DNA of 64,000 bases from contig JAHLWS010000062.1 in NCBI GenBank assembly GCA_019057795.1, forward strand, positions 1 to 64,000, given 5' to 3'. Below, one piece after another: positions 46,779 through 48,627 of this stretch. Both the position numbers and the translations under genes were made by a program. The stretch comes from Promethearchaeota archaeon. GTDB lineage: Archaea > Asgardarchaeota > Lokiarchaeia > Sigyniarchaeales > SOKP01. Below the pieces are notes generated by a model that made no database searches, was not told the origin of the DNA, and saw only the letters and a list, made by a program, of their open reading frames with translations. Position 1 is the first letter of the stretch; each line of letters starts with the position of its first letter.

Positions 46779-47021
46779 CCAATTTGATCTAAATTTTTTT
46801 ATATAATTTCTAATTTTAATGATTATAATTAAAGAGTTAGAACAAACATTTTTATTACATTAACAACAAATTTTTAGCATAATTTACCTTTTAAAAATAA
46901 TATATATTGATTTTCTAAAAAAAATAAATTAAAAAAAATAAAAAAAATAGAAAAGTAAGGAATCTTATCTGCCAGAACTTAATCCCAGAAGAGCAGATTC
47001 ATCAGAATTGAAGCCAAACTC

Positions 47022-47131
47022 GCCAGCGTATCCGAGATAAATAAAGGATTTATCCTATTACGGAAATAGTAAGGAGGCGGCCTGCAGAGCCGTTGCTTTC
47101 AGCATCATGGGTGCAAATCCCATCGCTGGCT
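47022..47131 (+). tRNA. tRNA-Cys(GCA), with predicted intron 47037-47066 and long variable arm
   Basis: Acceptor GCCAGCG/CGCTGGC, U73, anticodon arm GCGGC-CTGCAGA-GCCGT, T-arm ATGGG/CCCAT; adjacent to cysS. Confidence 0.88.
47037..47066 (+). other. tRNA intron at non-canonical position 15/16 (relaxed BHB)
   Basis: Central helix UCCG/CGGA, bulges AG^A and AA^U, intron stems UAA/UUA and AUAAA/UUUAU; removal gives D-loop GAGUAGUAA. Confidence 0.75.
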
Positions 47132-47184: not shown

Positions 47185-48627
47185 ATGAAAGTTTATAATA
47201 GCTTAACATATAAAAAGGAAGAATTTAAGCCAATCGAACCCGGAAAAGTCAAAATGTATGTTTGTGGTGTTACAGTGTATGGTTCGCCTCACCTTGGTCA
47301 CGCAAAGTCCGCAGTTGCTTTTGATTTAATTCACAGATATTTAAAGTTTAAGGGCTATAAAGTTAATATCGTTAAAAATTATACTGATATTGACGATAAA
47401 ATAATTAAGAGTTCTAAAGAAAGAAACATCGATTTCAGAACTTTAAGCGATCAACATATTGCTGAATATGAGGAAATCATGGAAATGCTCAATGTTGAGA
47501 AAGATACACGAAATCCACGAGCAACCGAAGTAATAGATTTTATAATTAATTTTATTAAAGAATTGATTTCTAAGGGACACGCTTACGAAAAAAATGGATC
47601 CGTGTACTTTTCAGTTAAATCATTTCCGGGATATAGTTCCGTTCTTCAAAAGAGTAAAGGTGAAGGAAAGGAGAGCGAAGAAGAAGATTACATAGTAGAT
47701 CAAGATACAGCATTTGGAGAAGATAAGTTAGATAGTCGAGATTTTGCGTTGTGGAAAAGAATGAAAGAAGGAGAGCCTTTTTGGGAAAGCCCCTGGGGTG
47801 AAGGGCGTCCTGGATGGCACATTGAATGTTCTGCTATGATCTTGAACTTTTTAGGCGAAACAATTGACATACACGGGGGCGGTCAAGACTTGAAATTTCC
47901 ACACCATAGGAACGAAATCGCGCAATCAGAATCTTACACTGGTAAAAAAATTGCAAATTATTTCCTTCATAACGGTTATGTTAATGTAAAAGATGAAAAG
48001 ATGTCTAAAAGTCTCGGAAACTTTTTCACAGTAGCAGATATTGCCAAACAGTATGACCCAATGATTATTCGTTGGTATTTGATATCGAGTCATTATCGAA
48101 GTTCAAATAATTATACTATTGATAGCATGGAGCAAGCTAAAAATACTTACAACAGACTAATAAACACGATTAAAAAAGTAAACGATGCTGAATTTGCTGA
48201 AGCGAAATCAAAGCAACTTAACGATTTAATTGCAAAAATTGAAAATGCGGAAAATAAAATTATTGACGCTATGGAAGATGATTTTGACACTCCTGTAGCT
48301 TTGGCAGAGTTATTGACGCTATTTAGAGAAATTAACAAAGCTATACTACAAGATGGCTTGAAAATAAACCAAGAATTTAAGGATCGATTTTTCAAATTTA
48401 TAGAATTCAATGAAAAGATTTTCGGAATTTTTCCATCCTTAATCGCTAAAATGACACCGTTTTCGTTTGAAAGCATGGATGAGAAAGATAAACTCATCAA
48501 AAGTCTCGTTAATTTAATAATCGAAATGCGCGCTAAATTAAGAGATAAAAAAATCTACGATCTAAGCGATATAATACGCGAACGGTTAAGAGAATTAGGT
48601 ATCGATATCGAAGATAAAAAGACATAA
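47185..48627 (+). CDS. cysS: Cysteinyl-tRNA synthetase
   Basis: YVCG, HLGH, GRPGWHIECS, HGGGQDLKFPHH, KMSKS. Confidence 0.95.
   Translation: MKVYNSLTYKKEEFKPIEPGKVKMYVCGVTVYGSPHLGHAKSAVAFDLIHRYLKFKGYKVNIVKNYTDIDDKIIKSSKERNIDFRTLSDQHIAEYEEIMEMLNVEKDTRNPRATEVIDFIINFIKELISKGHAYEKNGSVYFSVKSFPGYSSVLQKSKGEGKESEEEDYIVDQDTAFGEDKLDSRDFALWKRMKEGEPFWESPWGEGRPGWHIECSAMILNFLGETIDIHGGGQDLKFPHHRNEIAQSESYTGKKIANYFLHNGYVNVKDEKMSKSLGNFFTVADIAKQYDPMIIRWYLISSHYRSSNNYTIDSMEQAKNTYNRLINTIKKVNDAEFAEAKSKQLNDLIAKIENAENKIIDAMEDDFDTPVALAELLTLFREINKAILQDGLKINQEFKDRFFKFIEFNEKIFGIFPSLIAKMTPFSFESMDEKDKLIKSLVNLIIEMRAKLRDKKIYDLSDIIRERLRELGIDIEDKKT

Follow-up and report, generated by a model that had tools for sequence, protein, structure and literature searches.

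A putative 30-nt D-loop intron with a relaxed splicing motif in the only detected tRNA-Cys gene of a Promethearchaeota archaeon

An interrupted tRNA-Cys gene next to cysS

Reading the cloverleaf from the sequence of the window (the whole 64,000-nt stretch of DNA analysed here, which begins contig JAHLWS010000062.1), we found a tRNA-Cys(GCA) gene at 47022–47131 on the plus strand, the strand of all of its parts given below. The gene includes discriminator U73 (T at 47131) and has no encoded CCA. Its acceptor stem is a perfect 7 bp (GCCAGCG, 47022–28, with CGCTGGC, 47124–30) and is followed by U8 A9 (47029–30), a 3-bp D-stem (UCC, 47031–33, with GGA, 47073–75), a 5-bp anticodon stem (GCGGC, 47077–81, with GCCGT, 47089–93) whose loop CUGCAGA presents the anticodon GCA (Cys) at 47084–86, and a T arm at 47107–23 with a 5-bp T stem. 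Anticodon and U73 are conserved in all aligned tRNA-Cys orthologues. Between the two strands of the 3-bp D-stem (TCC/GGA) lies a D-loop that, with its insert, measures 39 nt (47034–47072); the usual spacing between D-stem strands is 8–10 nt. Downstream, the cysteinyl-tRNA synthetase gene cysS (47185–48627, plus strand, from the list of open reading frames) starts 53 nt after the tRNA-Cys gene on the same strand, an adjacency that tblastn recovered at no fewer than 57 related loci. Orthologues of the tRNA-Cys gene are present in 97 of the 154 genomes of the order.

Evaluating the locus with standard tRNA finders, we obtained no tRNA call from the window as it stands, whether by ARAGORN (intron mode on or off) or by Rfam at its gathering threshold, and at a permissive threshold the unspliced locus gave a 13.8-bit partial match to the Rfam tRNA model over its 3′ two thirds. 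With 47037–47066 deleted, ARAGORN calls an 81-nt tRNA-Cys(gca), and the intron-less orthologue of genome G005, whose sequence equals that of the joined exons, reaches 54.7 bits against the Rfam tRNA model. The cuts predicted by the splicing motif described below thus leave a sequence that is recognised as tRNA-Cys, by ARAGORN directly and in Rfam through the identical intron-less orthologue.

Two further parts of the mature molecule vary among relatives. The variable region (47094–47106) is 13 nt long with a 4-bp hairpin; its stem carries compensating changes across relatives (GCU/AGC, GCC/GGC, GGC/GCC, GUC/GAC), and the region measures 12–14 nt in about 51 tRNA-Cys genes and is a 5-nt loop in 25. 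As a candidate second intron this hairpin was rejected, as it has no bulges and BHB-type cuts (those of a bulge-helix-bulge motif) would not leave the 5-nt loop of the relatives. The T-loop (47112–47118) reads UGCAAAU, with G55, and this form is always accompanied by A-G in the D-loop, not G-G; of the eight relatives in which the T-loop is of the UUCAA or UUCGA form, six have G18 G19.

Boundaries and splicing motif of the insert

In a search of 40 relatives of the host (genome G000), the tRNA-Cys genes of several congeners run from the first 15 nt of the gene straight into the sequence from 47067 onward. In G005 (L007) and G139 (L023) the intron-less genes have the sequence TCCGAG|TAGTAAGGA across this point and match the host exons joined at 47036|47067 with 100% identity. 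The 5′ exon (47022–47036, tRNA positions 1–15) equals the first 15 nt of both genes, the 3′ exon (47067–47131, tRNA positions 16–73) is 100% identical to query positions 16–80 of the G005 gene, and the intervening 30 nt (47037–47066) are exactly absent from both. When both cuts are shifted by one nucleotide in either direction, the orthologue sequence is no longer reproduced. Because the intron-less orthologues are identical and the shifted cuts fail, the junction is unique at 47036|47067, between G15 and U16, and the comparison establishes the exact boundaries of the putative 15/16 intron; the original prediction, which had placed an intron at this position with 47037–47066 removed, is confirmed by these genes. 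From this alignment we read the 30 nt as a genuine intron, of a kind already described for Asgard archaea.

The predicted splicing motif is built around a central helix in which the exon bases U10 C11 C12 G13 (47031–47034) pair with CGGA of the intron (47061–47064). On one side lies the 5′ bulge A14 G15|A (47035–47037, cut after 47036), which is unpaired in the constrained folds of 9/9 orthologues; the constrained fold then forms an intron hairpin (47038–47060) from UAA/UUA and AGGA/UCCU with a UUUA loop. On the other side lies the 3′ splice triplet A A|U16 (47065–47067, cut after 47066), which no outer helix closes, as the sequence beyond it is D-loop with at most a 2-bp U8A9/U16A17 contact. 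Both cuts obey the BHB rule, falling after the second base of each triplet and four pairs apart. By the strict hBHBh′ definition (a 4-bp helix, two closed 3-nt bulges and outer helices) the motif falls short, with the 3′ AAU unclosed; under the relaxed definition (HBh′/hBH/BHL, a central helix with at least one proper bulge), it is included. To judge from its sequence, the motif is a relaxed BHB of the HBh′/BHL type, as defined in PMC5829648. The coordinates originally given for these elements, the UCCG/CGGA pairing, the AGA and AAU triplets, the 39-nt D-loop and the absence of an outer exon helix from the relaxed motif all proved correct on re-reading.

Comparing the host gene with the eight other intron-bearing orthologues (L002–L006, L018, L055, L073), we found that CGG opposite exon C11 C12 G13 is kept in 9/9, that the 3′ site is A-R|U16 in 9/9, and that all inserts end in C-G-G-N-A-R. 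In every one of the nine, the internal intron helix starts right after the A14 G15|N bulge and stops right before CGG. Across the alignment of the nine inserts, 92% of the motif cells are paired in register, and sliding the partners lowers this to 24–52%. The central helix is looser at its first pair (U-A in the host, U-G or U-U in relatives, with U-U in 3/9). The alignment shows the predicted motif to be conserved across the intron-bearing orthologues. An alternative register with the bulge at G13 A14 G15, which the minimum free energy (MFE) favours in some orthologues, was discarded, its product being 2 bases shorter than the intron-less genes.

Folding the host by itself gives a less favourable picture. 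The intron hairpin, claimed originally as a paired intron body, keeps its first three pairs in the orthologues (one of them changing from A-U to U-G), but in the host it is weak (3 + 4 bp with an internal loop), and a tandem duplication of AUAA in the host intron allows the 5′ bulge either a 3-nt or a 7-nt register (compare L003 and L004). Single-sequence folding of the host D region yields two small hairpins, not the splicing motif, as its local MFE structure (−6.5 kcal/mol, versus −4.9 kcal/mol with the motif imposed), and with a z-score of −0.33 the fold is no more stable than those of shuffled sequences; the constrained motif folds of the nine orthologues lie 0.3–2.6 kcal/mol from their local MFE. 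Because the single-sequence fold misses the motif and is not significant, we took the structural support from the eight other orthologues.

These two hairpins had been foreseen as an alternative fold, and they lend some substance to the reading in which the 30 nt are retained and the mature tRNA-Cys carries a 39-nt D-loop, perhaps folded in just this way; a recent preprint also warns, in the portion of its text available, that some D-arm inserts may be non-introns (10.64898/2026.10.13.758758). We nonetheless consider retention very improbable, since the comparative data favour the splicing motif over the hairpins. Orthologues with the same exon sequence lack precisely the insert, and the sequence of the insert varies freely yet keeps its complementarity to the D-stem and its cut-site triplets, which is the behaviour of sequence that is removed. 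A retained 39-nt D-loop would, moreover, abolish the D/T elbow, and the 18:55 contact still co-varies in the gene family.

Predicted processing and comparison with known introns

The host genome encodes two paralogues of the PF01974 family (the splicing endonuclease EndA), each of about 200 aa. One, designated alpha and encoded at L021:1453–2055 on the minus strand, most resembles the catalytic alpha subunit of Aeropyrum pernix EndA (3P1Z_B, E 4e-34); it keeps the Tyr/His/Lys triad and aligns without gaps across the Crenarchaea-specific (L1) specificity loop, with K58-P59-R60 opposite K44-P45-R46 of A. pernix. In the second, encoded at L022:1435–2040 on the minus strand, Asp occupies the position of the catalytic His (His125 in M. 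jannaschii), and this paralogue is probably the structural beta subunit. The closest relatives of the host EndA protein carry the names Promethearchaeota or Lokiarchaeota, and the genome also encodes the RNA ligase RtcB (E 1.7e-168). In A. pernix EndA, K44 is needed to cut D-loop and bulge-helix-loop substrates (PMC3241643), and an (alpha-beta)2 EndA that includes the L1 loop has been reported for Asgard archaea (PMC5829648), although we found no biochemically characterised Asgard EndA in the literature. The protein sequences of the host are consistent with the (alpha-beta)2 type, and because the two paralogues fit the published (alpha-beta)2, L1-loop Asgard EndA, they support the permissive endonuclease that had been predicted from the intron, an alpha subunit with the K-P-R of the L1 loop and a paralogue lacking the catalytic His being what the examination of the EndA architecture returned.

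Such an enzyme has to accommodate about 30 nt of insert at a non-canonical site with an open 3′ bulge. The original prediction saw in this independent support for an intron of similar size in fwdB; that support is circumstantial, in that the enzyme must accept relaxed substrates of about 30 nt, and nothing here bears directly on the fwdB mRNA. The putative fwdB mini-intron itself (7148–7229, minus strand) is 29 nt long and seems to have an NCCG/CGGN central helix, a design like that of the tRNA-Cys intron.

Drawing these observations together, we infer with high confidence that the sole tRNA-Cys(GCA) gene detected is interrupted at 15/16 by a 30-nt endonuclease-type intron that is cleaved out and its exons ligated. 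In the proposed precursor, the 5′ strand of the D-stem (U10–G13) would pair with the CGGA at the 3′ end of the intron, displacing its normal partner, and this pairing would constitute the 4-bp central helix of the relaxed bulge-helix-bulge. The 5′ cut site, A14 G15|A, would sit in the bulge between the central helix and the intron hairpin, and the 3′ cut site, A A|U16, would lie four pairs off on the opposite strand in an open loop instead of a closed bulge. An (alpha-beta)2 heterotetramer would cut both sites with the aid of the specificity loop that its alpha subunit carries, and ligation of the exons by RtcB would create the junction UCCGAG|UAGUAAGGA, after which a normal D-arm could form.

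The insert might instead be removed by another route or at other sites, for instance by staggered cuts followed by trimming or by a nuclease other than EndA. What invites this reading is the relaxed motif, the position of the 3′ site outside a closed bulge and the two registers of the 5′ bulge in G000. No cuts other than 47036|37 and 47066|67 yield the sequence of the orthologues, however, and both agree with the BHB rule; such D-loop substrates are also known to be processed by EndA enzymes that carry the specificity loop, and we give this route as little credence as we give retention of the insert.

Placed among known systems, the tRNA-Cys 15/16 intron extends a kind already known from the D-arm of Asgard tRNAs and is not a new kind. 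Asgard tRNA genes were reported in 2024 to be heavily interrupted at non-canonical sites (Valentin-Alvarado et al., PMC11291895), with D-arm introns described both there and in 2026 (Goswami et al., preprint 10.64898/2026.10.13.758758) and, on this published evidence, frequent. The accessible part of the latter text presents D-arm inserts as the class that tRNAscan-SE misses most often. So far as the accessible text of these two sources goes, the present intron resembles their 'hidden' D-arm introns in its Asgard host, in an insert size of about 20–30 nt, in being missed by standard tRNA finders, in its discovery through compact orthologues, in repeated gain and loss, and in the two EndA paralogues per genome. 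It differs, within the same limits, in that those studies focus on Freyr-, Jordi- and Atabeyarchaeal families whereas our host belongs to a Loki-type (Promethearchaeota) genus, and in that comparison with orthologues whose exons are 100% identical here places the boundary at an exact nucleotide; neither tRNA-Cys nor position 15/16 is mentioned in the portion of Goswami et al. that is available.

Among experimentally studied introns, the closest in design is the HBh′ intron at 20b/21 of Methanopyrus kandleri pre-tRNA-Glu(UUC) (PMC5829648), which likewise lies in the D-loop and has a relaxed motif with one good bulge, and whose efficient cleavage requires an (alpha-beta)2 EndA that has the specificity loop. 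The two introns differ in their position within the D-loop, in the tRNA that they interrupt and in phylum; M. kandleri has, in the same gene, a canonical 37/38 intron as well, and the EndA of that organism is without the specificity loop (PMC5829648). The pre-tRNA-Thr(UGU) of A. pernix (PMC3241643) shares with our locus a D-loop intron, and its (alpha-beta)2 EndA, which needs K44, shares the K-P-R motif; its intron has a full BHB and removal shown by experiment, in contrast to the host intron, which has an open 3′ bulge and for which we infer removal. Another known tRNA-Cys gene also has a relaxed non-canonical intron, but at a T-loop site and with an epsilon2-type EndA.

Gene number and intron alleles among relatives

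The host genome (4.95 Mb, 31% G+C, 87 contigs) is rated 100% complete, and only about 27 of its tRNAs score above the Rfam cut-off. Within it, no second tRNA-Cys came to light when we ran ARAGORN in a mode that permits introns, the Rfam model over the whole genome, a custom scan for a GCA anticodon arm combined with acceptor and T arms, and a BLAST search whose query was the intron-less gene. The gene at 47022–47131 is apparently the functional tRNA-Cys(GCA) gene of the host, and the only one as far as these scans show. Without the 30-nt intron call the genome seems to have no cysteine tRNA, and the annotation is thereby corrected.

Since 87 contigs with only some 27 tRNAs above the cut-off mean that tRNAs can escape detection, one could suppose that the locus is a copy disabled by insertion and that a working tRNA-Cys resides in an unassembled or undetected region. 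We rate this as slightly less probable still than retention of the insert or its removal by another route. The exons show no decay and match those of relatives at 100% identity, nine genomes keep the insert at 15/16 with its motif intact, the linkage to cysS is conserved, and neither BLAST with the intron-less gene nor the anticodon-based scans reveal a second host copy. That the locus is instead a tRNA-like leader regulating cysS, as its place 53 nt upstream on the same strand and the widespread adjacency might suggest, is scarcely credible given its full set of tRNA features (7-bp acceptor stem, GCA anticodon, U73), its standing as the only tRNA-Cys candidate in the genome, and the inverted orientation of the tRNA relative to cysS in several relatives, by which co-transcription is not required.

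Other host tRNAs are also interrupted at non-canonical sites, with partial Rfam hits that are broken in the D-loop or T-loop. One, with anticodon CAU (G000:C65:137711-137848), has both a D-loop and an anticodon-loop insert, and in several host tRNA genes the Rfam match breaks off within the T-loop.

Across the order, we found tRNA-Cys inserts in at least six places, with about 50 genes free of inserts: at 10/11 (8 genomes), at 15/16 (9 genomes), at another D-arm site (1 genome, L020), at 33/34 (5 genomes), at 37/38 (8 genomes) and in the T-loop near 58/59 (8 genomes). The nine inserts at 15/16 form three families that are 55–67% identical to one another. On a tree of the CysRS protein the presence of introns is patchy, and three pairs of sisters differ in having one. 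In one tight CysRS group, G000 has a family A intron, G020 a family B intron and G005 none, although their exons are identical and their flanks 92–94% identical; the introns of G000 and G020 differ at ten positions in 30 nt, well above what the divergence of the flanks leads one to expect. That family A, family B or no intron should be found at such near-identical sister loci indicates rapid turnover, to judge from these alignments, and three intron families and an empty site at near-identical loci offer useful material on intron gain and loss.

Introns of family A are found again in G012 and G014, two genomes further removed from G000, with only about 80% CysRS identity to it. These two genomes, like G016 and G022, have their intron-bearing tRNA in inverted orientation with respect to cysS; in their respective sisters G024, G015, G006 and G020 the orientation is direct, and of these four G020 has the family B intron and the others have none. 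Comparing the inverted loci (L003, L004, L005, L006) with the direct ones (L012, L013, L002, L008), we found flanks that are 78–95% identical, and G012 and G014 (L003, L004) have in common an intergenic cassette of about 390 nt. The 15/16 intron might on this evidence have been exchanged between lineages as a tRNA-Cys allele, through replacement of the small gene or cassette, and not just inherited, an interpretation that we offer tentatively and regard as on balance doubtful. D-arm inserts have, by the available text of Goswami et al. (10.64898/2026.10.13.758758), been gained many times by a route of arrival that is unknown; if the exchange is real, the locus would record the arrival of introns in Asgard genes by replacement of whole small genes or cassettes from relatives.

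We saw no evidence in the host genome that the intron is a repeated mobile element, as searches for further copies there returned only chance AT-rich matches. Directly upstream of the tRNA 5′ end, an insertion of about 68 nt (46953–47021) is unique to G000 in comparison with G020 and G005, and it displaces an AT-rich, promoter-like stretch to about 70 nt from the tRNA-Cys gene. This insertion has no match elsewhere in the host genome or in 134 genomes of the family, and the same 134 genomes contain no donor of the intron together with the insertion, the intron part alone being matched, in G012 and G014.

The genes with an intron at 10/11 show a different arrangement. In L026, L027, L053, L054, L081 and L085 (also L068 and L083), the central helix uses acceptor bases 5–8, and part of the acceptor 5′ strand (GCCAGC or GCCAGCG) is present a second time 0–5 nt upstream of the true 5′ end. 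This duplicate may be a stand-in pairing partner in the precursor, or the footprint of an insertion.
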